From contig CAZRPY010000001.1 of assembly GCA_964602245.1 (NCBI GenBank), positions 152,246-216,245 of the forward strand: DNA of 64,000 nt, written 5' to 3'. Both the position numbers and the translations under genes were made by a program. This DNA comes from an uncultured Methanosarcinales archaeon. GTDB lineage: Archaea > Nanobdellota > Nanobdellia > Woesearchaeales > JACPIF01. Within the stretch, counting starts at the first letter, position 1, and every line of letters starts with the position of its first letter. Under the pieces are notes generated by a model. The model ran no database searches and had not been told where the DNA came from. It saw only the letters and a program-made list of their open reading frames with translations. Shown here one piece after another: positions 5,475 through 61,166 of this stretch.

Positions 5475-5477
5475 CTT

Positions 5478-6355: not shown

Positions 6356-6374
6356 GTTTTATTCTGTTTATTTT

Positions 6375-7622: not shown

Positions 7623-7623
7623 T

Positions 7624-7779: not shown

Positions 7780-7846
7780 AAGTTTATTACTTAAGAACTT
7801 TGTATATAAGCCTTTCTAAAGCTAGGCTTCAGTAAAAATAAGTTTC

Positions 7847-7965: not shown

Positions 7966-8109
7966 TTATTTTTATCAGAGCTTAAAGCTAAAAAGAGATT
8001 TTATCGCTAAATAAGATAACTAAAGAAATAATAAGTATAAGAATAAAGGAGCTTACTAAAATAACTGATAAAGAAATACCTTGAGCTTTAATGCTACTCA
8101 TATTAGCTA

Positions 8110-8385: not shown

Positions 8386-8466
8386 GACAATGCCTCTATA
8401 TTTCTTTTAAACCTATTATTTGATGTATATAAAGCTTTCTATGTGATTTAAATTTATATGATTTAT

Positions 8467-8973: not shown

Positions 8974-9126
8974 ATTATTTTGATTTGCATAACTAGTGGA
9001 TTTCTTTGTGTTGGCGTAGTTAATGCAAATTATTTTAATATTTTTTATTGATTAATGCGAGTTATTGCTATATTATCTTTATTAGTTCGATGCAAATTAT
9101 TATTGTTTTGACTGGCTTTACTTTCT

Positions 9127-9606: not shown

Positions 9607-9607
9607 T

Positions 9608-10675: not shown

Positions 10676-10680
10676 TTTGA

Positions 10681-11187
10681 TTAGGTCCAGCTAGAGAATT
10701 CTACATAGCTACCCTTACCTTCTAGCTTTAGAGCAATTTTGCCAAAAATAACATTTTGGCAGAAGTAATGCTCTTTTGGTATCCTTATATTTCCTATGTC
10801 TATAGAGATAACGTTTGTGTCCTTTGATATTAAAAACATGTTTTTACTTATTCTATCTTTCCAGCTGTTGCAGATAACTGGATTATAATCCTGATTACCT
10901 AGAGTACAAATATTTGTTGATTCCTGGCCAGTATATGAAAGATCAATAAAACATATCTTGTCATATTTATTTGGGATGCTTACTTCTTCCTTAATGACTG
11001 TGCCATAATCTGAAGTAGTCTTTTTAACAGCTGACGATAATTGTTTACCAAGCTGAAGAATAACTACTGTATCTGCTTTTTCACCCAGATTTCTAATAGA
11101 ATTATACCCATAGACCATTATTAAAGAGAATAATACTATGGCTAAAATGTAGATAAAAACTTCTCCAATTACTTGGGCATTTTTCAT
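10681..11187 (-). CDS. Pilin-like or membrane-anchored protein
   Basis: The N-terminus is MKNAQVIGEVFIYILAIVLFSLIMV. Confidence 0.45.
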   Translation of the reverse strand: MKNAQVIGEVFIYILAIVLFSLIMVYGYNSIRNLGEKADTVVILQLGKQLSSAVKKTTSDYGTVIKEEVSIPNKYDKICFIDLSYTGQESTNICTLGNQDYNPVICNSWKDRISKNMFLISKDTNVISIDIGNIRIPKEHYFCQNVIFGKIALKLEGKGSYVEFSSWT

Positions 11188-11196
11188 CTTTTAATG

Positions 11197-16080: not shown

Positions 16081-17327
16081 TTTTTAGGTTTTCCCTCTGT
16101 CTCAAAAACAAAATCTTGATAATCTTCTAGTAGTTCGTCGCTAACTTTTACTGTTAATAACCAATTATTGTTAAATGGTGGAGTGTCTTGCGAGCTAATA
16201 GTGTAAGGAAGGCTTGGATTATAAGAATAACTGAGAGAATCTTCATCAGGGTCATAAGATGACTTTGGATTAGTATTTTGCTGAAATATTTGACTTCCAT
16301 CTCTAATTATAACTAGAGGAGAATTGGCACTGAAAGTAATTTCATCTCCTTCTCTAAGAGTTGGAAGAGCTTGCTCAATTATATAATGAAGGGCAGGATA
16401 CCTGTTTTGAATACTAAACTGGAATGTAAATGGCCTGCCATATAAAGTTGAAGCTGGATCTGTAATGGATAATACATCATCTTTTTTGAATAAATTTCTT
16501 GATAGGCTTACTTCCATTACATCAAAGTTTACCTGGCTTGCATCAAAATTTAATGAATTGGAGTCTGTATCTATTATAGTTCTTGCTAGATTATAAATAA
16601 GTTTAAGCCTAATTTTAAGTGGGACAGAAAAGTCTTCTATTTTTGTTATTTCTTCTCCAGTTACTTTATTAATTATTATTGGAATCTTGGCGTTAGCTAC
16701 TATATGGTTATCTCCAATTATTACTGAACTAGTTACATTTGTATAATTTATATTATAAGTTTTAAATGACTGGAAATTAAGGCATGTGCTGGCATTATTG
16801 TTAATAAAATGCTCTAATTGAGATAAAATAGATATGTTTGAGCCAGAAAGGTCTGGAAGAGAATTTTGACCATAATAACCATTATTAAGGTCTATTGTGG
16901 TGTAAGTTGTGTCAGTATAAGGAAATTCTGGCCATGGATAGCTTGGTGGTTGCCAAAAATATAATTGGCTAATATCTGAGCTTGGGCGTTTAAGGCCATA
17001 GCTAACTTTATAGCCTGAATATAATATGTGGTCATTTCCTAGTTCCTTAGTATCTGGAATAAAGCCACCTTGGGATTTATAGATAAAACTGCCTTGTTTT
17101 CCTATGAAATCTAAGGCTTTAAAAGCTGTTTCTTCAATGCATTTATTTACAAATTCTTTAATACTGGCAATTCCTATAGCTGTTTGCTGGCTTTCTGTAG
17201 ATTGCCTGCCAAGCTTTTTCTCTGTCTTGAAAAGAACTAAATAAAATAGGAATATAAGCATAGCAAAGATAACTATGCCTATTATTATCATTATCGTTAA
17301 TTGAGATTTAGTATAAATCTTTACCAT
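16077..17327 (-). CDS. Membrane-anchored hypothetical protein (416 aa)
   Basis: It has an N-terminal TM helix (LTIMIIIGIVIFAMLIFLFYLVLF). It overlaps the giant gene by 4 nt. Confidence 0.55.
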   Translation of the reverse strand: MVKIYTKSQLTIMIIIGIVIFAMLIFLFYLVLFKTEKKLGRQSTESQQTAIGIASIKEFVNKCIEETAFKALDFIGKQGSFIYKSQGGFIPDTKELGNDHILYSGYKVSYGLKRPSSDISQLYFWQPPSYPWPEFPYTDTTYTTIDLNNGYYGQNSLPDLSGSNISILSQLEHFINNNASTCLNFQSFKTYNINYTNVTSSVIIGDNHIVANAKIPIIINKVTGEEITKIEDFSVPLKIRLKLIYNLARTIIDTDSNSLNFDASQVNFDVMEVSLSRNLFKKDDVLSITDPASTLYGRPFTFQFSIQNRYPALHYIIEQALPTLREGDEITFSANSPLVIIRDGSQIFQQNTNPKSSYDPDEDSLSYSYNPSLPYTISSQDTPPFNNNWLLTVKVSDELLEDYQDFVFETEGKPKK

Positions 17328-17361
17328 TATACCTCCTTTTTTAAGCTATAAGAGTATTTTT

Positions 17362-20052
17362 TTAAGTTGACCTTAACTTAGATGTGAGATCTTGCCATAC
17401 TTCATTGCCTATTTGATATCTGCTAGAGACTGTTACTATGGATTCTGATTGATTACAGAAGAGGATGTTTACTCCTGCTGAAGCTCTTTCCTTGTTTATC
17501 TCCTGGACTAGTGAGCAGACATCAATAGATGGGTTGCTGTATTGTATGCTTAAATAAGGATCATTTCTAATTATCTCTATTACACCTTTAACTGACTTGT
17601 CTCCAGAGCTAGATATATACAATCTGCTAAACTTCTTTGTTGATTGCAAGAAAGATAAGTCAACTTGGACTCCTTCATAAGAGGGCTTTGTCTCTTGGAT
17701 TTTGCCAAAAATCTTGGAAAAAGGACTCTTCAAGAGTAGGATAAATTTATCAAAGAAATTTATTTGTGGATTTAGGTTTATTGATGTTTTGCTAAATACT
17801 ATTGCTTTTATTTTATTATTATACCAAGCCAGTGGGCTTGTGCAAGAATGAAATTGTCCGTCATTTGCTAGTGCATTATTGCAGTAACTTATAGGTAATT
17901 CAAATGCTTCAAGAATTGAAGGATCTTTATTAATAATAGTGTTTATTGTTGTTCCAACTATTATATTGCTCTTAGTTTTTAAAACACAAAAGTTATTAGA
18001 GCAAGGTAATTGAGTAGCGTTTATGGCACAACTAGTTATTAAATCTGTTTTTACATTAAAGCCACTTGGCAAGGAATATTCAAAATTGTTTAGTACATTA
18101 GAAAAGATATCGCAATAAAGTGTATAATTACCTAGACTAGTACTTTCAGCACTGTCAAGCATTGCTAATGCTAGTAACTTAGTTCTAGCACTCCAATTTC
18201 CTTCTTCACAATAATTATCTCCTATATACTGAGTGTCATTAATGCATTGGATATTGTTATTTAAAGCTGCTGAGAAATCTTGGGTAAAGTTCTCAATTAA
18301 GCCATTTTTACTGTTAGAGCTAGTTGGATTAACTAAGCATTGAGTTTTTTTGGGGCAATAGCCTTGAGCACTTTCATCCGAATTGGTTTTTAATGGTGAT
18401 TCTGACCATTCTCCTTTAATGCATCTATTTCCATTAATAGCACTGCTTATGGCTGAAGTAGACTGATCATTTAAGCATTTAGAGCCATCCCAGCATTGAG
18501 TTGCTGTACAGCACTCTTCTTGAGGAACACTAGAATCTGTCCAACCAAGTTTTTTTAGGGAATCTCTAACTTCTGCAGATCTGTTCCATATACCTCTGGA
18601 TGAGCAAAATGAATGTTGGCCCTGCTGAAAGCCATTTAGTATTACTGCGCAAAACTGGTTGTTATGTACTAACTCTTTGGCTGTAATAGAATCTTTTAAT
18701 GCTTTTAAACTTGGCTTTGAATCTGTATTACAGCCTTCAAATGAGCCATTTGCATTAATAACCTCTTTCTGAATAGGATTGGTGTTGCTTGTAACATAAT
18801 TCTTGTTGAATACAGGAATACCATTCCAACAGGCTATGCTTTTATTAGGTTCGTTATAATACTCTTCAGAATCGTCGCCACAGCATCTTGTGCCTGTCCA
18901 TGTATATTGGCCATTAGATGTACAAGCCTGAGCACTTGAATCTCCATCTCTCCACTGACCATTATCACATAGGAAGTTATTGGTTGTATTTGACCACTCG
19001 CCTGCGGAATAGCACTTATTGAGAAAATTACAGTCAGAACTGCTTGAGCAGCAAGATTCTGTATCATCAATCAGGTCTCCTTTGCTTACAGTGATATATT
19101 CTTCAAAATCATCGCCACAGCATTTATCTGGGTTTTGTGAGCCGCCTATTGACCACTCTGTGCCATTACAAGAATTGCACCAATCTTCTCCTGTGTCTAA
19201 GTCAACTGGAGTAAAAGAGCAACTTCCTGAGGAGCAGCCATAATCTCTAGCACTGCAAACACCGCCATTTCCACATTTGCCATCACACTTTGGCTGAGAG
19301 GCTATATTTGGTCTATTAGGAGCTAATGAATCATAGATATTACAGTCTACTGTTTTAGTTTCTGACTTTAAGCCATTACATCTTGAAGTTGTTAGAGTGT
19401 TGCCTGAACAAGAGCTTGTTAAGCTTCTGTCTTCTCCGCATTTACCAGTATCTGAGCCTGAGATAATACAGCCTTCATTGTCTATAATTGTAATTTGGCC
19501 AAAATCGTTATATTGAGTAGGACCTATGCAATTATCTACACCACAGTTTCCTTGATCCTTTCCTTTGTGGCAGCCTCTAGTAGCTACACAATAATTGTCT
19601 GAGAGCTTGTCACAGCATCTCTTTTCAGTGTCCCAGAATGAGTTTGCTATGCAGGAGCATGCTGAGCTTGAATCATCTGGGTTTTTCTGGCCACTAGTTG
19701 AGGTTGTCTGAGGGACTGTACACTTACACTGTGCAGGATTGCTTTCTATGCAGACCTGTTGTGAGTAATAAACTTTAAATTCGTCTATGGTTAATGTGCC
19801 AAAGGATGCGAACTCATCTCTTTGGTCATAACAGCCAGGGCTGTATGTTAAGCATGGAGGTGGTGTCTGGCAAGTTCCTGAAATACATACTAAGCCAGAG
19901 TTACAACTAGAGCCGCCACAGCACATCTGACCATTGCCACCGCATGGAGGGGGAGATGGAGGAGGAGGCTCGCCTTTGCTCATGACTATTGAAGATAAAA
20001 CAAGAATAAATGTGAAAATACAGATTACTTGTAAAACTCTTTTTTTATTCAT
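17362..20052 (-). CDS. Secreted Cys-rich protein (896 aa) with a Pro-rich linker after the signal peptide
   Basis: It has a signal peptide followed by GEPPPPSPPPCGGNGQMCCGGSSC. The motif CCGDDxEEY occurs twice, and W-containing Cys modules (CDNGQWRD, CIKGEWSE, CEEGNWSA) also repeat. Confidence 0.6.
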   Translation of the reverse strand: MNKKRVLQVICIFTFILVLSSIVMSKGEPPPPSPPPCGGNGQMCCGGSSCNSGLVCISGTCQTPPPCLTYSPGCYDQRDEFASFGTLTIDEFKVYYSQQVCIESNPAQCKCTVPQTTSTSGQKNPDDSSSACSCIANSFWDTEKRCCDKLSDNYCVATRGCHKGKDQGNCGVDNCIGPTQYNDFGQITIIDNEGCIISGSDTGKCGEDRSLTSSCSGNTLTTSRCNGLKSETKTVDCNIYDSLAPNRPNIASQPKCDGKCGNGGVCSARDYGCSSGSCSFTPVDLDTGEDWCNSCNGTEWSIGGSQNPDKCCGDDFEEYITVSKGDLIDDTESCCSSSSDCNFLNKCYSAGEWSNTTNNFLCDNGQWRDGDSSAQACTSNGQYTWTGTRCCGDDSEEYYNEPNKSIACWNGIPVFNKNYVTSNTNPIQKEVINANGSFEGCNTDSKPSLKALKDSITAKELVHNNQFCAVILNGFQQGQHSFCSSRGIWNRSAEVRDSLKKLGWTDSSVPQEECCTATQCWDGSKCLNDQSTSAISSAINGNRCIKGEWSESPLKTNSDESAQGYCPKKTQCLVNPTSSNSKNGLIENFTQDFSAALNNNIQCINDTQYIGDNYCEEGNWSARTKLLALAMLDSAESTSLGNYTLYCDIFSNVLNNFEYSLPSGFNVKTDLITSCAINATQLPCSNNFCVLKTKSNIIVGTTINTIINKDPSILEAFELPISYCNNALANDGQFHSCTSPLAWYNNKIKAIVFSKTSINLNPQINFFDKFILLLKSPFSKIFGKIQETKPSYEGVQVDLSFLQSTKKFSRLYISSSGDKSVKGVIEIIRNDPYLSIQYSNPSIDVCSLVQEINKERASAGVNILFCNQSESIVTVSSRYQIGNEVWQDLTSKLRST

Positions 20053-31269: not shown

Positions 31270-31566
31270 ATGAGTGTAAAAATACATAATGTAAGTGGTA
31301 AGAAAATACTAGCTATATGCAATAAAAAAATTTTGGGAAAGGTATATATGGATAAGGGTTTGCAACTAGACCTTTCCTCATCCTTTTATAGTGGAACTGA
31401 AATTTCTGAGAATGAAATAATTCAACTAATGAAGGGAATCTATACTATAAATGCTGTAGGAAGCAAATCAATAGATTTTTTAATTAGAATTAGAGCAATT
31501 TCTAAAGAAAATGTTAGAATTATAAAAAAAAACACCTTATGCCTTTGCTATTCTAGAATAAATTAG
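31270..31566 (+). CDS. Conserved hypothetical small protein (possibly DUF424-like)
   Basis: It is 98 aa and co-directional with eif2b, 5 nt after it. Confidence 0.4.
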   Translation: MSVKIHNVSGKKILAICNKKILGKVYMDKGLQLDLSSSFYSGTEISENEIIQLMKGIYTINAVGSKSIDFLIRIRAISKENVRIIKKNTLCLCYSRIN

Positions 31567-34500
31567 TTTATCCATGCTTTTAGAGCTGCCTGCTTATCAC
31601 CAAACCTGCCAAAAACTCCTTCTATCCTTCTTTTTGTAACCTCGAGGCTTCTCTTTAAGTATAGAGGTGCATCATACTTATTCGCCAGATTAATAGAAGA
31701 TTCTAAGTATTTTATTACAGAGCCTTCTGAAACTGTGAAAGTAATCTTGCCACCGCATTCGTCGCATTTTCCATGAAGGCTTGGCCTCCTAAATTTTGTA
31801 TTGCATTTTGTGCACCTAAATTCCTGAGTTGAAAATTTCCTTAGATTACCTTTAATATCTTTTAGAAAATGCTTTTCTATAACTAATTTTGCAACATCTG
31901 ATGCATCAACAGCTCTTATCTTTTCTGCTAACTCCATCTGACCACGAAGCTTTTCTTCCATAGAAGGGATTGTCTTATAAGCAGAGCATAATACTCCAGA
32001 ATTAATATCAGTAGTTTCGTGAGTGTAGCCAAGCCCTTCATATTGCTTTTGAGTGTTTATTCTATCTCCTAGTTTTTCAATTGTGAAATCTTGCTTTTCT
32101 AAGAAAGATTTATAGAATTCTAGAGGGTATTGCCAGACAACATCTAAGTCAAACACCATATCATCAACTTCTGCTGGATTTAGCATTGAAGTCATTACTA
32201 AGCAGGCATCTTGAGCTGAGCCTCTATGATTAGGCAAATATTGTCTTGAAAAGTTTAATAATGCGTCCATAAGCAAGATAATTGAACTCTCATCCCCGTC
32301 TAAGTCTCTCCTCATTGCAGCGTGAAACATTGGATGAGCAAAAAATCCTTGGGTCTTACTAAATCCGATTATTCTGCCGATGATTGCTGCTGATGTGTGA
32401 GGGGCTATGCCTAAAACTAAATGTCCTATAATGTCATCTTCTTTTTTAAAGTTATAGAATTTAGGCATAGAGTATAAGGTTTCTAGTAAATCATCTATAA
32501 AGTTGGCTATCCTCATCAAGACTTTGCCAGCGCCTTCATTAGTTGATTCATAGCCAGAAGGGAGAATAATATCTTGAGGCTTTATCTCTACTATTTGGCT
32601 ATCAGAAACTAATTCTTTGTTATGGATATCTTTAGTATAGCCTAACTCTTTTGTTTTCCCAACTGTCAAGCCTATTTCTCTTGGCTTGAAATGTGTTATA
32701 CCAAGTTGAGTCATGTCATATCTTATTGTGCCATCTTTATTTACACTAAGATCATATTTGGCTCTCAGGATTCCTTTGACTAAATTTTCTGCTATATGAT
32801 CTTTATTAGATGTTCCTCTAACGCCTCGCAAGTTTTCTGGCACTATTTTAATGTTGGCTTTTGGAGCAAATGAATTATAGATAGCTTTAATATCAACTTT
32901 CCTATTAATGAAAGAGCTTGCTTTTCCATGGGAACATTCTTGACTATTAATATAGCCACAAATTTTGCAATAATACCTTAATATGCATTTGTCTTTACAT
33001 TGATAGCATAAATTGTATACATTGTCTAAAGAGCATTTTATACAATAAAAGTTCGGGAAATCGGATTTTACATGACCTATTTCTAAAGCTTGCTGGAAGC
33101 TTCTAAGCCTGCCGCCTTCCACACCTATAGGGAATAAAACAGAAGGAGAGCCTGTCAGCTTTCTTAGCTTTGCTTTCTCGGGCCTACCCATTCTTGCACC
33201 TATAAAGATTCCTGCTTTATCCTTTATTTTTATATTGGTTACTCTTTCTAGGATAGATAGGATATCCTCTTTATCTTCTAAATTTGTTTGCACATTATTA
33301 TCTAGAAAAACAAAATCTAAGCATTTTGCTACTTCTCCTTCTATAACTACAAATTCATTTTGAGCAAGTAAGTTGGGTATTCCCAATATTTCTAGGAGTC
33401 TTTTCTTTCCTTGGCTATTTGGAAGAATTATTTTTTTAACAACGCCTTGCTCTTCTTTAATAGTTACTGCTTCGTCAAACCATTCTTTTAAAGACAAAAG
33501 TTCAGCTGGTGTAATAGAGGTCCAATAAAAGGTATATTCTGGATGTAAAGGAATATTTAATTTTTGACTAATGACTAAAGATTCGTTAAAAGAAGGAGTA
33601 AAATTAAATGGTTGTTGGAAGAGAGTTTTTAATCTACTTTCATTTATACTAACATAATTTGCACATTTTGGATAATCATTATTAAAATTCAGTTTTATGG
33701 ATTCTTCAAGCTCAAGAGCCCACCATTCCTCACAATAACCTGGTTGAACTAAAGGATGACCTCTATTAACAAAATCTCCATAATTGATAAGGATGTCTCC
33801 TAAATAGAGAATTTCTTTTACATCTTTTGCAATTCTTTTTGCCTCTTGCTCTTCTTTGATTTTAATCACATTACCGTTATTTAATAATACGATTGGGCCT
33901 TCAATATAGTCACATGGCGTTAGTGTTGTGGCTTTCCCTGGTCTTTCAAGTTTAAGTTGGGTTCCAGTTGCTAGATACTTGTCTGATATATACATTGTTG
34001 CTGGATGAATTGTATATGAAGAAAAACCTGAGGTTCTTGTTCTACCATATCTAAGTCTAAAGCCTCCATATCTCATTGGATAAGTTAGAATTGGTCTGCC
34101 AGCTATTAAATCACTCATATATGTATAATCTGGACCTATTTTCTTTTCATCTTGGGTGACCTTGCCTTTTGATTTTATCTCTCTTTGTAAAGAAATAAAT
34201 TTTTCAAGAAATTCCCAATGATCTAACCCATAATCCTTTGCCCATTTGGAGAGCTGTTTCCATAACTTAACAGCTTTTTGGGCAATGCATTCTCCAATAA
34301 CTAGGCAAGGACCATTTCTAATTTTATTAGTTTCAATCCTATCTAAAAATTTATAATTAGAAACTTCTAAATCTTCAGATGGCTCCCCATCAATTTGAAG
34401 AGGAATATTCTTTACTAAGAATTCAATCTCTTTTTCGCTGGGAAGATATTGTAAGTTGGTAACTTTTTCATGATAATCAAACATTTCAATTACGGTTCTT

Positions 34501-35069
34501 TTTATTTCTTCTGTTGAAGCGTCATAAGTGTCATATCCCATTTTTTTCCTTACATAATCTGCAATTAAGACAGAGACAGAGGCGCCGGTACCTCCCGCAC
34601 TTCTTATAGGTCCTGAGTACAATATTGCTAAGTATTCTTTTCCATCTTTTCTTTTTCTAACTTTTAAATTTGTAAAACCTTCTAGAGGAGAAGACACTGT
34701 CCCTAATGTATGATACGCAAAACCAACTCTTATACCAGTTTCAATTGCTTCTATTTTATTGCTAAACTTGCAAAACTTTTCTTGAGCTATTTCAAGAGCT
34801 ATAATTAGCGAAATTCTCCAATCTAAGACACCGTAATTTTTTTCAAGTTCTCTTAGCCTTTTTGGGATACCTACACCTTTTATTTGAGGGCTTATGGCTG
34901 AAACAAGTCCTTCTACTCTTTCTGCCATGTCTATTGCTAGCGGTATATCTACATGATCATCTGGATCGTATCCTTTCTTTCTGGCTTGCTCAGCTATGTC
35001 ATAAACTTGTTTTGTCTTTTTCCCTATTTCTTCAAGATATTTCTTAATTTCTTGGCTTGCTTCTACCAT
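31563..35069 (-). CDS. polC: DNA polymerase II (PolD) large subunit DP2
   Basis: It is 1168 aa with an N-terminus typical of DP2. Several Cys clusters are present. No intein is evident. Confidence 0.9.
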   Translation of the reverse strand: MVEASQEIKKYLEEIGKKTKQVYDIAEQARKKGYDPDDHVDIPLAIDMAERVEGLVSAISPQIKGVGIPKRLRELEKNYGVLDWRISLIIALEIAQEKFCKFSNKIEAIETGIRVGFAYHTLGTVSSPLEGFTNLKVRKRKDGKEYLAILYSGPIRSAGGTGASVSVLIADYVRKKMGYDTYDASTEEIKRTVIEMFDYHEKVTNLQYLPSEKEIEFLVKNIPLQIDGEPSEDLEVSNYKFLDRIETNKIRNGPCLVIGECIAQKAVKLWKQLSKWAKDYGLDHWEFLEKFISLQREIKSKGKVTQDEKKIGPDYTYMSDLIAGRPILTYPMRYGGFRLRYGRTRTSGFSSYTIHPATMYISDKYLATGTQLKLERPGKATTLTPCDYIEGPIVLLNNGNVIKIKEEQEAKRIAKDVKEILYLGDILINYGDFVNRGHPLVQPGYCEEWWALELEESIKLNFNNDYPKCANYVSINESRLKTLFQQPFNFTPSFNESLVISQKLNIPLHPEYTFYWTSITPAELLSLKEWFDEAVTIKEEQGVVKKIILPNSQGKKRLLEILGIPNLLAQNEFVVIEGEVAKCLDFVFLDNNVQTNLEDKEDILSILERVTNIKIKDKAGIFIGARMGRPEKAKLRKLTGSPSVLFPIGVEGGRLRSFQQALEIGHVKSDFPNFYCIKCSLDNVYNLCYQCKDKCILRYYCKICGYINSQECSHGKASSFINRKVDIKAIYNSFAPKANIKIVPENLRGVRGTSNKDHIAENLVKGILRAKYDLSVNKDGTIRYDMTQLGITHFKPREIGLTVGKTKELGYTKDIHNKELVSDSQIVEIKPQDIILPSGYESTNEGAGKVLMRIANFIDDLLETLYSMPKFYNFKKEDDIIGHLVLGIAPHTSAAIIGRIIGFSKTQGFFAHPMFHAAMRRDLDGDESSIILLMDALLNFSRQYLPNHRGSAQDACLVMTSMLNPAEVDDMVFDLDVVWQYPLEFYKSFLEKQDFTIEKLGDRINTQKQYEGLGYTHETTDINSGVLCSAYKTIPSMEEKLRGQMELAEKIRAVDASDVAKLVIEKHFLKDIKGNLRKFSTQEFRCTKCNTKFRRPSLHGKCDECGGKITFTVSEGSVIKYLESSINLANKYDAPLYLKRSLEVTKRRIEGVFGRFGDKQAALKAWIN

Positions 35070-35072
35070 TTT

Positions 35073-36650
35073 TTAAAACCTCAAAATCTTAATTTCTCTG
35101 GTTTGAAGATTAAGCATTGGAACTCTGCAAGGTTCAGGATTATGGCCAAGTTTTTCTTGGAATGGTGTCATATCCTGCCAGCATGAGCCACATATCATAG
35201 TTACATGCCTATAATTTTTTGCTGATACCCTGTGCAAATGGCCAGTAACAAAAATGTCAGGAACTTTTTCAATTACCAAGTAATCTTTTTCTGGATCTGG
35301 AAGAGATAATGTTGAGGAATATGTGGGGGCAAGGTGCCTTTTTTGAAGAATAAATTTCATTATAAGGTCTGGTCTATCATAGCCTCCATTATTTCTTATA
35401 GACTCAACATTTGCAATATAGTAGTCAAATGAGTATCCATGATAAATTAGGACATCAAATCCTGAAAAATTATTATTGGCTTCTATGTTGACTACTCCTG
35501 GGTTTGAGATTATTGTGATATTAGACAATTTCCATAAATCTTCTGCAAAATCTTTGTAGAACTCTGGCTGTGGCTCTGATATCCTCATAGCATCATGGTT
35601 GCCTGGAGAAATTATAATATTAATATGCTTTGGAATTCTAGCCAGTAATTTTGCGCATTCTTTGTATTGCTCATAGATATCTAGTATCTCTAACTCTCTT
35701 TCTTGGCCTGGATAGATACTACAACCATCAACAAGGTCACCTGCAATAAAGAGATACCTGATTTTTGAGATCAATTCGCGATGCTTTTCACTTTCTCCGT
35801 TGAGCCAATTTAAGAATTTCTCAAATTTGTCTCTTAGAAAAAGTGTTGAGCCTATATGTAAATCTGAAAGGAATAAGGAATAAACTTCATCTTGAGATTT
35901 CCTTAATTCTTTATTAATGGGTATGTCTGGCTCTATAATATTATTTGCAAAGACTATATTGGTACCTGTTACACCAACTACTCCTAAAACCTGGTCTAGT
36001 ACCGTGTCTTTTGCAACATCAAATATCTCTTTTCTATTTTTATTGACAAAAACTTTAATTGAGCCTGTAAGGTCTTCTATGATAAAACTTATACCTCCGC
36101 TCTTTGTGGTTTCTTTTAATTTAACCATGCCTATTATAGATACTTGTTCTTTATCCTTTTTACTGAATATTCTATTAATGGATACTGGATTTTGAAGCTC
36201 TTGTCTATTTTGTAAGATTTTTTTAATAGAGTTAAATCTGTTCGTAAAATATGAAACAAAATCTTGGGGTTCAATTGGTTTTAATTTTTTATTGTAGGAA
36301 AATACGATTTTAACTTTGTTTTCTATCTCTTGGTATTGCGGCTCTTGTAAAGGCTCTGTCAAGTGTATTAGAAATTTGTCATAAATATTTTTTCCTTTTC
36401 TTTTTTCTGCAAGTGCTCTTATCCTTTCTAAATCAAGCCAATTTAATTCTTCTAATTTCTCTTTATTTTTGGTAAGTATTTTTTCGAAATCTTTGTTGAG
36501 AACTAGTAAGGTGCTTGATTCTTTGTTTTCAATAATTTCTTTCATAGAAGTTAAATCTATTTCGTTTTCTAGTATTTCTGGATTTATTAATATGTTTTTA
36601 TTGAGAAAATAGTTAATTAGCTCTTTTTTCCTTGATTTTTTGTCTTCCAT
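35073..36650 (-). CDS. polB: DNA polymerase II (PolD) small subunit DP1, a calcineurin-like phosphoesterase
   Basis: Phosphoesterase motifs are present (GDLVDG, ISPGNHDA, GHLH). Confidence 0.9.
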   Translation of the reverse strand: MEDKKSRKKELINYFLNKNILINPEILENEIDLTSMKEIIENKESSTLLVLNKDFEKILTKNKEKLEELNWLDLERIRALAEKRKGKNIYDKFLIHLTEPLQEPQYQEIENKVKIVFSYNKKLKPIEPQDFVSYFTNRFNSIKKILQNRQELQNPVSINRIFSKKDKEQVSIIGMVKLKETTKSGGISFIIEDLTGSIKVFVNKNRKEIFDVAKDTVLDQVLGVVGVTGTNIVFANNIIEPDIPINKELRKSQDEVYSLFLSDLHIGSTLFLRDKFEKFLNWLNGESEKHRELISKIRYLFIAGDLVDGCSIYPGQERELEILDIYEQYKECAKLLARIPKHINIIISPGNHDAMRISEPQPEFYKDFAEDLWKLSNITIISNPGVVNIEANNNFSGFDVLIYHGYSFDYYIANVESIRNNGGYDRPDLIMKFILQKRHLAPTYSSTLSLPDPEKDYLVIEKVPDIFVTGHLHRVSAKNYRHVTMICGSCWQDMTPFQEKLGHNPEPCRVPMLNLQTREIKILRF

Positions 36651-36679
36651 TTTAGATAAGAAAGATTATTCTTGTTTTA

Positions 36680-37891
36680 TCAAGTTAAGTCTAACCCTTC
36701 CTCTAATATTTGTTTTATCTTTATGTTTAAATGTTCTTGTGTGGTGAGTTGGATTTCTCTTGTCCTACCGTGCCTGCCTTTTGATATTACTTTGCCATTT
36801 ATAATTCCTTGCATGTCCAGTTCTGCAAGTATATCTGAAATTCTTCTTTGGGTTAGGGGCCTTAGACCTATCTGACTGCATAATTTCTTGTAAAACTCAT
36901 AAACCTCCCCAGTTAAAATTGCTTCATTTTGTGACTTTAATAGCCTAAATATTGAGTAAATAACACATTGATATTGCTTAGGCTGAGTTGAAATTATTTC
37001 TATTATATAGTCTCTTTCTATCTTTTCCTCTGCATTATCTATATGTTCAATTTTTACAGTGGTATTACCATTTCTATCTGCAATCTCCCCTGCAACCCTT
37101 AATAGCTCTATAGCTCTTCTTGCATCACCATGGTCACGAGCAGCATAGGCTGAACATTTTTCTATTACACCGTAATCTAAAGCCCCTTCCCTAAAGGATT
37201 GCTTAACTCTTTGCTCTAGAATATCCTTAATTTGTAAGGCGTTGTAAGGGGGGAATATTAGGCCCTCTTCTGATAAAGAGCTTCTAACTCTTGGGTCTAT
37301 ATTGTCTAGGAATTTTGTGTCATTGGAAATACCGATTAAGGCTACCTGAGCTTTTTTTAACTCTTCGTTGATCCTTGTTAAATTATAGAGTATATCATCT
37401 TCTGTTCTTTTAATAAGATAATCTATCTCGTCAAGGATAATTATTACTATTTGTTCCTTTTCTTCAATTCCAGAATAAAATATCTTGTAAACCTCTTCTG
37501 TTGGCAGCCCTGTAGAAGGAACAGCTTTGTTCAAGTCTCTTGCCAATTGGGCAATTAGCCTGTACTGTGTATCAGCTACCCTTTTAAGCTTACAGTTAAT
37601 GTAAAGTACTTTTAATGGTATTTTGTTGTTTAAAGATGCTTTTATAAGATGGTTTGTTACATGTTTTATGGTTACTGTTTTGCCAGTTCCTGTTTTACCA
37701 TATAAAAGAAGATTAGAAGGTTTTTCGAGTTTTAGGCTTGGGGCCAATATCTTACTGATTTGTTCTATTTGCTCATCTCGATGAAATATTTGTTCAGGAA
37801 TGTAGTTAAATTGTAGTACTCTTTTGTTAGTAAAAACGGATTGTATATTTATAAAATTCTCAAAAAATGTAGCTAAACCCCACTGAGTCAT
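36680..37891 (-). CDS. cdc6: Orc1/Cdc6 replication initiator
   Basis: It has AAA+ Walker A (LLLYGKTGTGKT) and a C-terminal winged helix. It is the first gene of the cdc6-DP1-DP2 operon. Confidence 0.95.
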   Translation of the reverse strand: MTQWGLATFFENFINIQSVFTNKRVLQFNYIPEQIFHRDEQIEQISKILAPSLKLEKPSNLLLYGKTGTGKTVTIKHVTNHLIKASLNNKIPLKVLYINCKLKRVADTQYRLIAQLARDLNKAVPSTGLPTEEVYKIFYSGIEEKEQIVIIILDEIDYLIKRTEDDILYNLTRINEELKKAQVALIGISNDTKFLDNIDPRVRSSLSEEGLIFPPYNALQIKDILEQRVKQSFREGALDYGVIEKCSAYAARDHGDARRAIELLRVAGEIADRNGNTTVKIEHIDNAEEKIERDYIIEIISTQPKQYQCVIYSIFRLLKSQNEAILTGEVYEFYKKLCSQIGLRPLTQRRISDILAELDMQGIINGKVISKGRHGRTREIQLTTQEHLNIKIKQILEEGLDLT

Positions 37892-38198
37892 AAATTTTCC
37901 AGAGGAAGGAACGGTATTTAAATATTTATATTATGAAGAAGACAATACCCCGTGGTTTCTTATGGAGTATTGGCTATTATCTTTGTAGACATATTATATA
38001 TATTTTATATTTATTTTCTATATGGATAATATATATCAGTAATAATAAACAGAAACGTGTTAAAGTATATTAACTAATAGTTAGAATTTCCACAAGAAGA
38101 GACCGTCTAAGTAGGTATTCAGATACGAGTTGTTACTTTTAAATAATAACAACGTAGAAAGATTTAAATACTCTTGGTACAATCCACAATAAGAGAAA
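37892..38198. other. Candidate replication origin (oriC): ORB-like repeats flanking an AT-rich unwinding element
   Basis: The ORB-like repeats are tTTCCAgAgGAAGgAAC (37893-37910) and aTTTCCAcAaGAAGagAcC (38084-38102). They flank a roughly 60-bp tract that is about 90% AT (37985-38045). The region lies immediately upstream of cdc6, as in Pyrococcus. Confidence 0.5.
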
Positions 38199-50255: not shown

Positions 50256-51332
50256 TTATCTTGTTACTTCAAAGCTTTTAACCCTAGCAAGAAGCTCTTT
50301 AGCCTTTTTATTTTTTTCAAAGTGTTTTCTTACTGGTTCAATTAACTGGTTAATATAGAATGCTACAGTATTCTTTAAATCAATTGGATGCAAGTTACCT
50401 TTAGAATAAACTCTGACAAGATCATTATAGTTATGAAACTCTAAGTTTCCACCAAATTTTTCAGCTCTTTCTATCGTAATTGAGTTGAATTTTTCAAAAA
50501 GTATGTATTTGCAATATTCCAAGATAGGGTTGTCCTCTACTTGTTTTTCTGGACAATAGGCTTTAGCGATCTTTTCCTTGACCTCTTTCTCGGAATCTGT
50601 CATAAAAATGGCAGTTTCTGGCTTGGATTTAGACATTTTGAGGTCAATTGTTCTTTCAATAGCACTCTTTTCTTTACTAGCAGGCTTGCCAAGGCCCATT
50701 AACATATGGTGGCTGACTATCACAGGTTTCCAATATCCAAGTTTTTCTCCAAGTTCCCTAGCTAAAACATTAACTTTCCTTTGATCCATGCCTAGCTGGC
50801 AAATATCAGCTTTTAGATGGAATATGTCAGCTGCTTGCATACAAGGATACAATATTTGAGAGGCTTGCTGTACTTCAGACTCTTGTCTGCCCATTATCTG
50901 CCCAGTTCTTATTATCCTCTGTATAGTAGAATTTCTTGCTATCTGCATTACTTTCTTCCAATAATCCATACTGTTTACTACATCACTTGCCCTTACAAAT
51001 TCTACCTTATCAACATTCATTCCAGACACTTTCCAAACCTCAACAAGATAATCGCTGCATATTTGTATTTTTTCTAGATCACCGCCTAACTTGTTATTGG
51101 CCCAAGCGTGCCAGTCAGCTGCATACATCTTGAAATGGATGCCTGCTTTTACTAGTTTATTGATATTTATAGCCCTAAGAATGCCTTGAGCAATATGAAT
51201 ATTACCAGAAGGCTCAAAACCATCATATGCTATTGGATGAGATTTAGTCTCTATTAAAGTTTTTAGCTCATCTTCTGTAATTATCTCTTCACCTACCTGC
51301 TTTATCAGCTCTAATTTTGTATTTATATCCAT
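50256..51332 (-). CDS. tyrS: Tyrosyl-tRNA synthetase (archaeal type)
   Basis: It has a HIGH-region variant (EPSGNIHIAQ), KMSKS, and a C-terminus (KAYCP...NPILE...EKFGGNLEF...LHPIDLKNTVA) that matches archaeal TyrRS. Confidence 0.85.
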   Translation of the reverse strand: MDINTKLELIKQVGEEIITEDELKTLIETKSHPIAYDGFEPSGNIHIAQGILRAININKLVKAGIHFKMYAADWHAWANNKLGGDLEKIQICSDYLVEVWKVSGMNVDKVEFVRASDVVNSMDYWKKVMQIARNSTIQRIIRTGQIMGRQESEVQQASQILYPCMQAADIFHLKADICQLGMDQRKVNVLARELGEKLGYWKPVIVSHHMLMGLGKPASKEKSAIERTIDLKMSKSKPETAIFMTDSEKEVKEKIAKAYCPEKQVEDNPILEYCKYILFEKFNSITIERAEKFGGNLEFHNYNDLVRVYSKGNLHPIDLKNTVAFYINQLIEPVRKHFEKNKKAKELLARVKSFEVTR

Positions 51333-51405
51333 AAAACTAAGCTTAATTTATTCTTTTAAAAAGGTATCGTAAATTTAGGCTCTGTCATAAATCTCGATTT
51401 GCTCG

Positions 51406-51525
51406 GGGTTAGGTCGGTTCGCATTTTGATGTGAAAACTGTTAAGTTGACATCCCCGTAAGGGACTTCCCCCTGTCAACTGTAATTTTTGTATATTGGAG
51501 AATGCTCACAAAAATGACCTAACCC
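51406..51525 (+). ncRNA. Candidate structured ncRNA or structured repeat element, family copy 2 of 3
   Basis: The closing helix is gggttaggtc / gacctaaccc. The conserved strands are ggttcgcatt and gaatgctcacaaaaat. The internal helix gttgaca/tgtcaac encloses cccGTAAggg. A TATA-like ttttaaaaa lies about 45 nt upstream and the run ctttattta lies downstream. Confidence 0.5.
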
Positions 51526-51552
51526 TTTATTTAGGACAGAGCCGTAAAAGAA

Positions 51553-57229: not shown

Positions 57230-59773
57230 TTAAGGTGTTAATTTAGCTACACTAATTAAAGTATTATACCTATCCCAAATTTCATCTGCATAATTTATGT
57301 TTGTCTTGCCCCATCCATTGTAGGCTCTTAGACCTGCTTTATCAATAGTGTAATATATCAGAGTTGTTGTTGGTGCATAGGTATACTCACAAAACCTATC
57401 TTTATTGCATTTTCCATCGCATTTAAAGCCAAGACAAGAATCCGGATAGGGATGAACGCACTCTGAGGGTGAGGAGCAAGAATCTTTGAATTTCCCATAT
57501 TCCTGATTAAATATTTTTAATCCACAATCTATGTTTGATAAAGGATTTTTCTCCCTGTCAGCTGGGCATGTTGCTATTGTTGCTGTATTTTTCTTTGAGA
57601 CTTTCATAAGCCCAAACCATTCATCACCAGGGTCTAGGCTGTAAGCATTTTCATTGCATCCAGATTCCTGCACTATAATTGAAAGAGTAAATAAAGGATC
57701 TATACCATTTTTTTTTGATGACTGAATAATACTTTCTGCATGTTTTTTGCATGGCTCTTTTAGAGAACTTTGTATTGCAGTAGTAGCATCTATTATCTTT
57801 CTTAATCTCTCATGGCTTATTTCTCCAACGCTTTTTGTAGAGTCAATAGCAATAGGCTGCGCTTTTCTGCTAATATAACCAGATGGTAGTCTATTAACAG
57901 TAATGCTTATCTGCTCTGTTATTTTATACTTATAATTAATTTTTGCTCTAAAATATTTAATTGCAATGGGAGTTGCTCCAAGGAATTCCTCTGAGTTGTC
58001 TACGTTTAAATTACATAATATTGTAGTAGGAGTTTTAGCTTCTTTTACCCTTGCAGGATCTCTTTCTAGTTTATATGTCTTATAATTATCATCTTTGGCA
58101 ACCTCTTCACTAAAATCCTTATTCTCTACTAATTTAACATTATAATTTGGGCCACAAGCACTTTTACCTTCTGTTATTGACATTTGCTTTGGCACTTGCA
58201 AATAAATCTCTTTTATTTCAATTACTTGGCCTTTCCAGTTATTGTCTAAAGTAATGCCAAGCCTGGGGGTTATTGTTTCTATGCCTTTTCCAATGCCTAC
58301 TATCTCACTTGAAGTTCCCATGCCAATCATTATTGGACCGTTAGTGTAAACAGCCACAGGCTTCTTTTCAGTAATTCCAAACCTGTCTAAAGGATCAATG
58401 TTTTCTCTTAATAGTTCTCTTAATCTCTGTCTGTCCATAAAATAAGCTTTGACATAACCATATGTAGGAAAGTTCTCAAACTCAGATGAGAGCTTTATAA
58501 CATGGCTGCCTTCTTTTAACTCTTTCATATTACATTCTAGGTCAAAAACATCAAAGCTTTCAACAGTAAACTTATTTCTAGCTACTGTGCCTATTTTATC
58601 AGGGCTATTATCATCTCCTTCATAACAACTAACTGCTATAGTAATTGGAATACTTGGATCAATAGTTCTAGCCCTTAAAACTCCATATACAACAATAGTA
58701 TCGCCTGAATAATATTTAGGATCAGCAGCCTTAACTTTTTCTATATAAACACCTAAAGGCTCTTTTACGTTTCTGTCAACATTGCCTGTGTAATAGTCTC
58801 CTCCAACTGTATAAAGTACTGCTCTATCAAAGCTTTTCTTAACTTGCCCCGGGATGCTTTTGATTGTTGTAACAACATTGCTTAAACCTTTTGTAAAAGA
58901 ATTTCCAAGTTTTGACATTCCATCTATAACATCAATCTTTACTGGCAGGTTTTCAAGGCCACTAAAAGCTTCAGCTGCTGTATCCCAACCTATGACAGCC
59001 CAAAAAATAATTAATGCTGCAAGACCAAGTTTTAATACCCTAGTTCCACCAACACCAAATGTTAGGTAAATTATCCATAACGGTCCAAAAACTGCAATTA
59101 GGATTACTTGAAATATAATATTGTTTGCTAGAAAACTTAAGCCAGGTATATTAGGTAAGTATGGGAAGCCAAAAGCTATAGCAGAAATAATAAAAGGTAT
59201 CCTTAAATCTTCTATATGGAATCGTCCTATCTCGCTTTTAAAAACACCAAATCCTGCCCATAATGTTATAATTGTATAAAATAGCATCCTTATTCTAACA
59301 GGTAGTTGGAAAAAAGTGGAGAGATCTAATAAATAAACAACGATAGTCATGAAAAAAAACGCATTCAAACCAGTTAATGCTCTGGCACCAGCCCTTACTC
59401 CTGAGGCAGTTGCACCAGCAGCAGCACTGCCTATTGTAAGACCGGTCATTAAGCCTCTTCCAGTGCCTCTGGCAGCTCTTAAAGCTTTACTGCCAACATT
59501 TTGCCATCTTCTAGCTTTTTCTTGAGATGCTTGCAAATTTCCCATGCCTGCCATCTGCCTTTGAAGACTGGCTTCATATTGTTGCTCAAATAAATTCATT
59601 TGACTCATTCGCATTTGCTGTTCTCTCTGAGCCTGTGCCATAGCTGCGTTTTGCTGGCTAGAGGATTTCCTTAAATTCTTTACAGAATTAGCCATATTTC
59701 TACTGTATTTAGCAACTATACTTCCAGCACTAGCAAGCCCTCTTCCAATACCAGCAATTATAGGAACTACCAT
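57230..59773 (-). CDS. Large polytopic membrane protein (847 aa) with a Gly/Gln-rich N-terminal region and a C-terminal lytic transglycosylase (SLT, lysozyme-like) domain
   Basis: The C-terminus has IVQESGCNENAYS...FGLMKV, which matches the SLT family-1 motifs ES-x-F-x-P-x-A-x-S and GLMQ. There are about 5-6 TM helices after a Gly/Ala/Gln-rich N-terminal stretch. Confidence 0.65.
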   Translation of the reverse strand: MVVPIIAGIGRGLASAGSIVAKYSRNMANSVKNLRKSSSQQNAAMAQAQREQQMRMSQMNLFEQQYEASLQRQMAGMGNLQASQEKARRWQNVGSKALRAARGTGRGLMTGLTIGSAAAGATASGVRAGARALTGLNAFFFMTIVVYLLDLSTFFQLPVRIRMLFYTIITLWAGFGVFKSEIGRFHIEDLRIPFIISAIAFGFPYLPNIPGLSFLANNIIFQVILIAVFGPLWIIYLTFGVGGTRVLKLGLAALIIFWAVIGWDTAAEAFSGLENLPVKIDVIDGMSKLGNSFTKGLSNVVTTIKSIPGQVKKSFDRAVLYTVGGDYYTGNVDRNVKEPLGVYIEKVKAADPKYYSGDTIVVYGVLRARTIDPSIPITIAVSCYEGDDNSPDKIGTVARNKFTVESFDVFDLECNMKELKEGSHVIKLSSEFENFPTYGYVKAYFMDRQRLRELLRENIDPLDRFGITEKKPVAVYTNGPIMIGMGTSSEIVGIGKGIETITPRLGITLDNNWKGQVIEIKEIYLQVPKQMSITEGKSACGPNYNVKLVENKDFSEEVAKDDNYKTYKLERDPARVKEAKTPTTILCNLNVDNSEEFLGATPIAIKYFRAKINYKYKITEQISITVNRLPSGYISRKAQPIAIDSTKSVGEISHERLRKIIDATTAIQSSLKEPCKKHAESIIQSSKKNGIDPLFTLSIIVQESGCNENAYSLDPGDEWFGLMKVSKKNTATIATCPADREKNPLSNIDCGLKIFNQEYGKFKDSCSSPSECVHPYPDSCLGFKCDGKCNKDRFCEYTYAPTTTLIYYTIDKAGLRAYNGWGKTNINYADEIWDRYNTLISVAKLTP

Positions 59774-59860
59774 TTGACCTCTTTTATTAAATAATTAAGA
59801 AAATAGCATTTAAACCTTACTAATTCTCGGGCTCATTGAAAAGTTCCTCGCATTTGCTCG

Positions 59861-59978
59861 GTTGCCATCGGTTCGCATTGTCATGTTGCTACAGGTAACA
59901 GGAATTCCTACTTGCAATCTCCCTTCCTGTCTATGTTTAATTTGAAGATGCTCACAAATTGATGGCAACTACAAACTT
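59861..59978 (+). ncRNA. Candidate structured ncRNA or structured repeat element, family copy 3 of 3 (most diverged)
   Basis: The closing helix is gttgccatc / gatggcaac. The conserved strands are ggttcgcatt and gatgctcacaaatt. A TATA-like atttaaa lies about 50 nt upstream and the run acttttc lies downstream. The GNRA hairpin module of copies 1 and 2 is replaced by other sequence. Confidence 0.4.
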
Positions 59979-59996
59979 TTCAATAACGCCTAATTC

Positions 59997-61166
59997 CTAG
60001 TTACTTTTCAGGCTTACATTCAATTCAACAATATTTAATGTTTCTTTTGGAGTTACTTCAATGAAGTTATTGCCCTCTTCAACAAAACTGTCAATATTCT
60101 TAGTAAATACTGCCCTTGTCTGCTCTACCCTAAACTTATGGCCATTTACACTGATATCAGCGGATTTGCTAGATTTATCATCAATGAAATGCATAGCTAA
60201 AATTACGTCTTTCTTATTATTTTCTACATTGGAGAAATCAGCAGCAGTTATTTCAAAGTAATAGATTATAGATTTAGTTTCTTTTAAGTCAAGATCGAGC
60301 TTTATCTGCTCAATACTATAACTGCCCTTGCTTGACCTGAATACTATGGTATTAGTTCCCTCATTTAAAAGCTCAGGGTTAATATCTAAGGCAACAGTCT
60401 CTTCGCATATAGGAACTGAGGAATAGACATTCTTATTATTTATAGCTAATTCTAAATTTCCAATCTCTTGTTTGCCACAGAATGGAATGAACTTTAGCTG
60501 AGGTCTTTCTATATTCTGAGCCTCAGAGCTGGTAAGGACAAAAGAGTTCTGGCTTTTCTGCCTGCTTAAGTCAGTTATCTCTCCAATAATCTTTACATCC
60601 TCTAAACTATATTCATTTGTTCTCCAGAACTGCCATCCAACACTGCCAACTGAGAATTCTAATGTGTTAGAATCTTTGAGTAAACTTTTCTTGAATTCAA
60701 TTGGCTCAATGTTTTGAGATGTTATTTCATATTGGTAAATAAGTTGACCATTTAGCTTAATTATTAATTCCCCTTTATATTTCTGTACTGTAAATGAGAG
60801 GAAAACATTGTCTGTGTTCTCAAGATTAGGGATATTAAACTCTACTGTTTTATCTCTTTTGTCAAACACACCATTTCTTATGCTGAAAGGAGAGAATTTT
60901 GCTAAAACTTTTGATTCAACTGCTTCAATTAAGTTTACATTTGATATATCGATACTTTTTTTATCTTCAAGCTGGAAGGATAATGTTCCAGGAAATTCTT
61001 CCAATAATACTGAAACATCTACTTTCTTCACGGATTTGCTAGGAGTAGAAGGCTTACCACTATCTTCAAGAAGAGCTTCTCTTTCCTCAGGAGGCAATAT
61101 AACAATGTAAAGTATGATTATTAAAAGTATAATTAAGACTAATGTATTGGCTTGTCCTTTCCTCAT
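59997..61166 (-). CDS. Membrane-anchored extracellular hypothetical protein (389 aa)
   Basis: It has an N-terminal TM helix (LVLIILLIIILYIVIL). Confidence 0.5.
   Translation of the reverse strand: MRKGQANTLVLIILLIIILYIVILPPEEREALLEDSGKPSTPSKSVKKVDVSVLLEEFPGTLSFQLEDKKSIDISNVNLIEAVESKVLAKFSPFSIRNGVFDKRDKTVEFNIPNLENTDNVFLSFTVQKYKGELIIKLNGQLIYQYEITSQNIEPIEFKKSLLKDSNTLEFSVGSVGWQFWRTNEYSLEDVKIIGEITDLSRQKSQNSFVLTSSEAQNIERPQLKFIPFCGKQEIGNLELAINNKNVYSSVPICEETVALDINPELLNEGTNTIVFRSSKGSYSIEQIKLDLDLKETKSIIYYFEITAADFSNVENNKKDVILAMHFIDDKSSKSADISVNGHKFRVEQTRAVFTKNIDSFVEEGNNFIEVTPKETLNIVELNVSLKSN

Follow-up and report, generated by a model that had tools for sequence, protein, structure and literature searches.

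The question raised by this locus was whether a structured, repeated, non-coding segment is a small-RNA gene or a mobile element. The DNA analysed was a stretch of 64,000 nucleotides from contig CAZRPY010000001.1 (assembly GCA_964602245.1), referred to here as the window. Three copies of the segment lie in it, all on the plus strand: c1 at 7825-7982 (158 nt), c2 at 51378-51543 (166 nt) and c3 at 59830-59990 (161 nt). The initial annotation had proposed a novel non-coding RNA of about 119 nt with its own TATA box and a terminator, and had named a transposable element as the alternative. Our results favoured the alternative. We concluded, with a probability of about 0.85, that all three segments belong to a Woesearchaeota (DPANN) family of non-autonomous DNA transposons resembling MITEs (miniature inverted-repeat transposable elements). 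The window itself was archaeal: it encodes eRF1, TBP, Orc1/Cdc6, PolD, EndA and Hjc, its G+C content is about 32%, and the closest homologues of its tyrosyl-tRNA synthetase (TyrRS) bear Woesearchaeota or Nanoarchaeota names. Loci from other contigs or genomes are given L-numbers below.

The copies and their shared strands were found again as annotated. The 12-mer TCGGTTCGCATT occurred at exactly three sites in the window (7856, 51414 and 59868), and ATGCTCRCAAA also occurred at exactly three (7941, 51502 and 59948), at a matching spacing from the 12-mer. Alignment of the three regions showed common strands and a complementary closing helix. However, the unit was larger than the 119 nt assigned to it. 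An outer helix of 15-17 bp, P0, encloses that part in each copy and gives a rod-like inverted repeat of 158-166 nt, and it is this larger unit that direct repeats flank. The T-run downstream of the 119-nt part, which had been read as a terminator, was the 3' arm of P0, whose partner is an A-run of the 5' arm. No open reading frame (ORF) of at least 80 aa overlapped the three copies. The elements are non-coding.

Evidence for mobility was obtained from the DNA directly outside P0. The flanking 9-mers were identical at all nine positions in 6 of the 21 copies scored, at eight positions in 2 and at seven in 4. As a control, about 2000 random placements were made in the same loci; none gave nine matches and 0.6% gave eight. 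The fully matching copies were L007 (TACTCTTTA), L026 (CTTTAATCA), L029 (TTTTCTTTA), L033 (CTTAAATTA), L163 (TAATTCTTA) and L032, and eight positions matched in c1 and L008. L167, added to the 21 copies scored, carried GGTTGATAG on both sides. Such identical flanking 9-mers are the signature of a 9-bp target-site duplication (TSD). In the window, the left TSD of c1 is CTAAAGCTA (7816-7824) and the right TSD is TTAAAGCTA (7982-7990), eight of nine positions being identical and the first T of the right TSD being common with the element end. The left TSD of c2 is degenerate, GTAAATTTA at 51369-51377, and the right is GTAAAAGAA at 51544-51552; relatives without c2 have a single CGTAAAATT at the site. 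For c3, the TSDs are TAATTCTCG (59821-59829) and TAATTCCTA (59991-59999), the latter holding the stop codon of the minus-strand gene at 59997-61166. The orthologue of c3 in L163 had its perfect 9-mer on both sides.

Orthologous sites were filled or empty depending on the genome. The c2 element was absent from L158 (TyrRS 87% identical) and L159 (TyrRS 81% identical), both of which keep the two promoter blocks at the site, and the gene order in L158 was the same as in the window (PRC / Cas4-like / TyrRS / M24 / TldD). The c1 element was absent from L167 and L169. The window, in turn, has an empty site in the 81-nt spacer at 8386-8466 between genes of 91 aa and 168 aa, and the orthologous spacer was filled in L167, with its duplication on both sides, and in L169/L002. 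The copies were also dispersed. About 20 distinct copies in other contigs adjoin unrelated housekeeping genes. The genes next to the elements, among them those for TyrRS, a class-I aminoacyl-tRNA synthetase, PCNA, RNase J and glycosyltransferases, had no partner in common. No further copy was found in the 4 kb of the 297,834-bp source contig beyond one end of the window. P0/P1 subfamilies recurred in unrelated contexts (c2 and L006; L007 and L008). The P0 sequence GGCTCTGTC(A/C)TAAAT was found in c2 and L006, GGCTGCGTTCAAAAT in L003, L007 and L008, and GTGGCATTGAAAAGT in L026, L033 and L036. Since the same P0 sequence occurs at unrelated loci, P0 belongs to the element and not to the target.

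These results agreed with the MITE-like alternative in the initial annotation. The family is short, non-coding, dispersed and polymorphic for insertion, with terminal inverted repeats and a fixed TSD, and has every MITE feature save an autonomous partner. The annotation had expected of a MITE both flanking duplications and identical termini; the duplications were found, and the termini were not identical between copies. An independent assembly of the same organism, L001 (ENA contig k139_395378, 9858 bp), ended at the outer edge of c2, which is the effect expected of a repeated element.

Relatives were collected by searching a one-genome-per-species collection and the JGI metagenomes for the two conserved motifs at matching spacing. 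The collection gave 7 real homologues among 10 matches, from three metagenome-assembled genomes (MAGs) of Woesearchaeota and two MAGs labelled Methanosarcinales, and the metagenomes gave 13 among 26. The other matches were G+C-rich and without the fold, and were taken as chance. The pattern search biased the sample toward apparently "invariant" motifs. Copies reached by other routes had GGCTC in place of GGTTC and a fully compensated P2 helix (AAGCU/GGCUU in L019b, AGGUU/AACCU in L163 and GGCU/AGCC in L167), which meant that the family is broader than the motifs suggest. Family members were 149-212 nt long, and in nearly all of them the P0 arms were 9-17 bp, with many different sequences. Most copies ended in 5'-GG...CC-3'. 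The common architecture, of about 155-212 nt, consisted of P0 as terminal inverted repeat of 13-17 bp, P1 as subterminal inverted repeat and a conserved asymmetric junction GGYUC / P2 / UCRCAAA, followed by an exchangeable central hairpin module. L003 and L033 had a 35-nt insertion in the 5' loop. The records of L003, L005, L006 and L008, which carry the element, are labelled 'uncultured Methanosarcinales' in GTDB and come from binchicken co-assemblies. The G+C content of these "Methanosarcinales" loci was 32-34%, like that of the Woesearchaeota loci. The label may reflect mis-binning and was treated as doubtful.

Three types of apex were distinguished in the central module. In type A, the P3 helix surrounds CCCC-GNRA-GGG...CCCCC; in type B, it surrounds TTCC...TTGCAA...CC; type C is that of L163. 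Comparison of c3 with its same-site counterpart in L163/L164 showed how the module changes. The TSD of L163 is common to them and the outer arms are about 95% identical, with a neighbouring protein that is 77% identical, and yet the central 60-115 nt were unrelated. The L163 copy (2976-3187, minus strand) has a longer module with three perfect hairpins, GCACGTTTC/GAAACGTGC, CAAAAATC/GATTTTTG and CGAAAACT/AGTTTTCG. L002 and L018 were orthologous as well, yet their central modules differed. The copies evidently recombine and exchange modules. Such recombination can move both arms of a helix together and accounts for part of the apparent covariation.

The fold of the window copies was then described helix by helix on the plus strand. 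P0 lies at 7825-7841/7966-7982 in c1, at 51378-51392/51529-51543 in c2 and at 59830-59845/59974-59990 in c3, where its outer end is imperfect. Between P0 and P1 lies an internal loop that is asymmetric, with 5-14 nt in its 5' strand and 0-3 nt in its 3' strand. The 5' strand is a 5-nt bulge in c1 (7842-7846), CTCGATTTGCTC in c2 (51393-51404) and CCTCGCATTTGCTC in c3 (59846-59859). P1 was perfectly paired in every copy, as GTTTTGCCATC/GATGGCAAAAC in c1 (7847-7857/7955-7965), GGGGTTAGGTC/GACCTAACCCT in c2 (51405-51415/51516-51526) and GGTTGCCATC/GATGGCAACT in c3 (59860-59869/59961-59970). The compensatory change reported for this closing helix was confirmed as a compensation of the whole helix between c2 and c1/c3. 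It was the only swap within the window, since c1 and c3 have the common core TTGCCATC/GATGGCAA. Inside P1 follow GGTTC (7858-7862, 51416-51420 and 59870-59874) and P2, which is GCATT/AATGC in c1 (7863-7867/7940-7944), lies at 51421-51425/51501-51505 in c2 and is GCATT/GATGC in c3 (59875-59879/59947-59951). In c2, the strand TCACAAAAAT occupies 51506-51515. P3 is TTGAC/GTCAA in c1 (7886-7890/7916-7920), GTTGACA/TGTCAAC in c2 (51445-51451/51473-51479) and ACAGGAA/TTCCTGT in c3 (59898-59904/59924-59930). The annotated internal helix TTGAC(A)/(T)GTCAA around CCCCGTAAGGGACTTCCCCC was indeed common to c1 and c2, which have type-A apices (7891-7915 in c1, with a CCCC-GTAA-GGG mini-hairpin, and 51452-51472 in c2). 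The apex of c3 differs and is of type B (59905-59923). The folds were much more stable than those of dinucleotide shuffles, with z values of -4.2 (c1), -6.1 (c2) and -4.9 (c3).

Covariation was examined with and without a structural guide. Unsupervised MAFFT alignment followed by RNAalifold recovered P1 and P2, and 7 of the 11 P1 columns were changed on both sides. In a structural alignment of 20 copies (A4), which was built by hand to fit the structure, with N padding to keep MAFFT from altering it, 97.7% of 767 cells were standard pairs and 35 of 43 pairs were changed on both sides; slid controls of the same alignment were 36-46% paired. These numbers overstate the case for P0, because the alignment was structure-fitted and inverted termini pair by definition, and do not overstate it for P1, P3 or the mini-stem. 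The latter is a 2-bp stem in the 5' loop, which covaries as GC/GC, AC/GU, AU/AU and CU/AG. These results showed that selection, or a mechanism, that keeps the fold is real. The initial annotation was right in that the helices covary, and they do so strongly.

Neither strand folded better than the other: of 21 copies, 13 favoured the plus strand (p = 0.18). Over the rod, G-U outnumbered A-C mismatches by 47 to 25, an excess that came largely from two inherited positions. P1 of L006 differed from that of c2 by four transitions, all yielding G-U and none A-C. The orientation to neighbouring genes was mixed, with 7 antisense and 4 sense copies in tandem contexts and 4 divergent ones, and an arrangement with a fixed divergent orientation to the gene start failed in this systematic table. 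Some copies lay only 10-13 nt from the upstream gene. Known RNA classes were also searched. As the initial annotation had stated, none was recognised: Rfam at the gathering threshold gave 0 matches in the window and one unrelated tRNA in 7 loci, a permissive Rfam search (E up to 10) on c2 and L008 gave chance-level matches only, and ARAGORN found 0 tRNAs in the window. A tRNA T-arm mimic, GGTTCGCAT, was dropped, as the alternative hairpin CAUCGG/UUGAUG was present in few copies only and competes with P1. C/D box, H/ACA, kink-turn and bulge-helix-bulge stems were rejected by inspection, the internal loops being 12-15 x 2-4 nt and not 3-4-3; UGAUG sits in a perfect helix, and ACA lies within the closing stem and not after it. 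Integron attC sites, CRISPR and the origin recognition box repeats of replication origins were rejected on context and spacing.

The position of the elements relative to promoters was investigated by scanning 48 nt outside the element ends for the octamer TTTAWAWA with at most one mismatch. TATA-like matches piled up 15-18 nt outside the ends (22 of 42); the signal was stronger on the 5' side and present on both. Examples were c1, c2, c3, L003, L006, L008, L010, L029, L032 and others. This distance is what results from the 9-bp duplication and a further 6 nt or so, as long as a transcription factor B recognition element (BRE), before the neighbour's TATA box begins. In the window, all three boxes are on the minus strand and 16 nt from the 5' end of the element. 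The box at c1 (TTATATAC, 7802-7809) belongs to a small ORF with its start codon at 7777-7779, the box at c2 (TTTTTAAAA, 51354-51362) to the TyrRS gene (50256-51332), and the box at c3 (TTTAAAT, 59808-59814) to a gene for an 847-aa SLT-domain protein (57230-59773). The c1 TATA block was kept in L167 and L169, both without c1. The c2 box stands within the block CTTTAAAAAGGTATCGTAAA, which was kept in L158 and L159 though the element is absent, and the c3 box was kept in L163 and L165. The phasing explained the "TATA box 40-50 bp upstream" noted earlier: the boxes are promoters of the neighbours and not of the element.

The sites themselves were narrow. The stop codon of the upstream gene falls inside the duplicated 9 bp in c1, c3 and L026; in c1, this gene is a small minus-strand ORF, whose stop codon lies in the right TSD. 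Before insertion, the spacers were extremely short; in L008, two back-to-back promoters left only the 9-bp target between BRE-sized spacers. Surviving insertions occupy what little room is free in intergenic regions that are very compact. The promoter phasing may reflect survivorship in very compact genomes or targeting of promoter-proximal DNA. As a bolder idea, which we regard as distinctly improbable, the element could be a promoter-seeking module. It would integrate into the 9 bp upstream of BRE/TATA, for example via a promoter bent by TBP/TFB, and its multi-helix fold would act as a single-stranded nucleic acid, either as a structured RNA (about 160 nt, transcribed divergently from the promoter it has captured) or as a DNA intermediate that folds back on itself. 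In this way, an RNA or DNA structure with a regulatory or insulating role would be spread through DPANN genomes, which are extremely compact.

For the MITE-like transposon, the following mechanism is proposed. A transposase supplied in trans would bind the two ends and cut the element out or copy it. Insertion would occur into a 9-bp staggered cut, the repair of which would give the 9-bp TSD. The fixed 9-bp duplication and the GG...CC ends suggest a DDE transposase, most likely from a family that makes 9-bp duplications, and an IS5/IS903-group-like parent is one candidate. The conservation of the fold may have several causes. Both ends must presumably stay matched to the same transposase, and recombination between copies would exchange modules as a whole. 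Quasi-palindromes can also be corrected on a hairpin template, a known mutational mechanism that may contribute. Neither this correction nor the matching of the ends would call for an RNA function. Selection on a single-stranded DNA or RNA form is possible.

Several observations weighed against a MITE-like transposon. Pfam detected no transposase domain in about 50 window ORFs, no autonomous partner was found, and the IS903 transposase had no phmmer match among the 957 ORFs of all collected loci. The c2 "empty site" in L158 was not a base-perfect excision footprint. The covariation of P1, P2, P3 and the mini-stem is not required by cut-and-paste alone. In addition, the termini were less conserved than the interior, and three P0 variants occurred within the 64-kb window, an unusual diversity for ends that a single transposase would have to recognise. 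Finally, some copies, such as c3/L163, were kept in place although the neighbouring protein is 77% identical. Such same-site retention across substantial divergence hints at constraint or exaptation.

In two alternatives, the fold works as RNA. The element may be mobile and its transcript of about 160 nt, arising divergently or by read-through from the adjacent promoter, may be functional, either as a regulatory or stabilising RNA of the host or in its own propagation. This would add to the MITE-like reading, and we considered it unlikely. The pairing in A4 relative to its slid controls, with double-sided change in most pairs, and the seven P1 columns recovered even without supervision are consistent with such a transcript. 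So are the conserved single strands GGYUC and UCRCAAA, the GNRA loop kept as GUAA or GUGA, the G-U rather than A-C outcome of the P1 transitions in L006 with the G-U excess over the rod, and the TATA box 15-18 nt outside the ends. However, the folding energy was the same on both strands, the G-U excess was dominated by its two inherited positions, and antisense outnumbered sense copies without a fixed orientation. Some copies have no room for a promoter, the upstream gene of L017 ending 10 nt away. The GNRA loop was lost in L019b (GUAU), P1 was broken in L032, and A4 was fitted by hand to the structure. The original proposal of immobile paralogous small-RNA genes, each with an archaeal promoter and an oligo-T terminator, was judged highly improbable. 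Stable folds, covarying helices and a TATA-like box upstream of every window copy are what it would predict, but 9-bp TSDs flank the copies and orthologous sites are filled or empty by genome. The c2 TATA block persists in relatives without the element, TATA boxes stand on either side of elements, and the T-run belongs to P0. Copies lie in unrelated contexts without conserved synteny and in both orientations, with both strands folding equally and no Rfam match. An independent small-RNA gene was therefore not upheld.

The same duplications were compared with two further models of insertion. A SINE-like (short interspersed element-like) retroelement, in which a structured RNA is reverse-transcribed and inserted by target-primed reverse transcription, would account for a structure conserved above sequence and for the presence of TSDs. 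Reverse transcriptases of diversity-generating retroelements are known in DPANN archaea. However, the duplication is fixed at 9 bp and not variable, the element has true terminal inverted repeats with GG...CC ends, and neither an A-rich tail, a 5' truncation series nor a nearby reverse transcriptase was seen. This explanation appeared even less probable than immobile RNA genes. Insertion of a core of about 119 nt into pre-existing palindromes, such as terminator hairpins, would make P0 target DNA and fits the different P0 sequences of the three window copies. It was rejected as having a negligible chance of being correct, since the same P0 sequences recur at unrelated loci and in unrelated genomes, the direct repeats lie outside P0, and the empty sites have no hairpin.

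The MITE-like family was also compared with known systems. In a published census, the genome of a Woesearchaea archaeon was reported to have a MITE density among the highest in archaea, 105 per Mb (PMC11602168). Like prokaryotic MITEs (SM1-SM4 of Sulfolobus, Correia elements of Neisseria and enterobacterial ERIC/IRU), the present elements are short, non-coding, multi-copy and intergenic, with terminal inverted repeats, a fixed TSD, fold-back hairpin potential and presence or absence at orthologous sites. In contrast to those MITEs, the termini vary within a genome, and conservation is highest in the single-stranded motifs of the interior. Covariation extends to several internal helices, central modules can be exchanged, insertions keep a phase of about 15 nt to neighbouring TATA boxes, and no parent insertion sequence was found. 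Searches of plasmids and phages with blastn gave no copy or parent, and viral contigs gave chance matches of 14-mers only and no 19-mer match. We found no description of this MITE family in the literature.

The search for a parent pointed to the IS903 group of the IS5 family, at the level of a lead only. IS903 makes 9-bp duplications, and both the duplication length and ends that begin with GGCT are common to the group and the elements. The public record of IS903 (1057 bp, annotated IS5-like IS903 family transposase) gives an 18-bp inverted repeat, GGCTTTGTTGAATAAATC. Compared with P0 of c2 and L006, GGCTCTGTC(A/C)TAAATC, it matched c2 at 13 of 18 positions with a 2-nt gap, an apparent resemblance over about 15 nt only. 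The reverse complement of the 3' arm of L032, AGCTTTGTCCTAAAT, resembled it over about 15 nt only as well. Unlike in the IS903 group, no IS5-type transposase was found in the window or in any collected locus. Other families with 8-9-bp duplications (IS4/IS10, IS1, IS256 and ISM1) are possible parents. Palindrome-associated transposable elements (PATEs) derived from IS200/IS605 are common in archaea and, like the present elements, are mobile, short, non-coding and rich in hairpins. Terminal inverted repeats and TSDs are both lacking in IS200/IS605 elements, and a PATE was rejected since the element has both. A Y1 transposase gene (IS200/IS605 TnpA) lies in the close relative L158 (6066-6494) after TldD, where the window has a second TldD-like gene. 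It represents other mobile elements in the lineage, unrelated to the element with 9-bp duplications. Eukaryotic elements that target promoters (Ty3/Ty1 at Pol III genes, Tf1 and plant mPing) also insert immediately upstream of promoters, at a near-fixed distance from TATA. They differ in domain of life and mechanism, and the phasing seen here may reflect the 9-25 nt or so of non-essential DNA between a stop codon and BRE/TATA.

Other features of the loci were noted. A second conserved non-coding motif, G+C-richer, GCAYTACGAGGCACGAACTACGTGCCTAT...AGTCCGCT...AGCGGACAGGTATA, was intergenic in the Woesearchaeota-like contigs L006 (1440-1650) and L165 (4260-4360); in L165, it fills the spacer corresponding to that of c3. 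The window lacks this motif, and the Rfam scan of L006 gave no match to it; it may represent a further family of structured RNAs or repeats. In the window, the Orc1/Cdc6 gene (36680-37891) adjoins the gene for the small PolD subunit (35073-36650) and is followed by a 307-nt non-coding spacer (37892-38198). The ORF of 1168 aa at 31563-35069 is presumably the large PolD subunit, and 31563-38198 is probably the chromosomal replication origin region. A block at 700-20050 contains about 18 minus-strand ORFs, including proteins of 1627 aa and 896 aa, with c1 inside it and parts syntenic in L167 and L169. Pfam gave no match for almost all of the ORFs scanned in this block, the two largest being among the few outside the scan. 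The block could be a cell-surface or appendage gene cluster.

These results place the family as a new member of the prokaryotic MITEs, whose unusual traits do not make a new category. Assigning what looked like a "novel ncRNA" to the mobile elements prevents an erroneous RNA-family entry. The family showed recent mobility in otherwise tiny, streamlined genomes and documented recombination between copies through module swapping, and it is usable as a marker of genome dynamics in uncultured Woesearchaeota. Its insertions meet the upstream edge of BRE/TATA promoters exactly, whether by tolerance or by targeting. If targeting underlies the phasing, archaea would have a transposon-promoter interaction of a new kind, and if the fold is used as RNA, the element would be a mobile structured RNA. 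If the Methanosarcinales label is correct, the element would be common to DPANN archaea and possible methanogen hosts.

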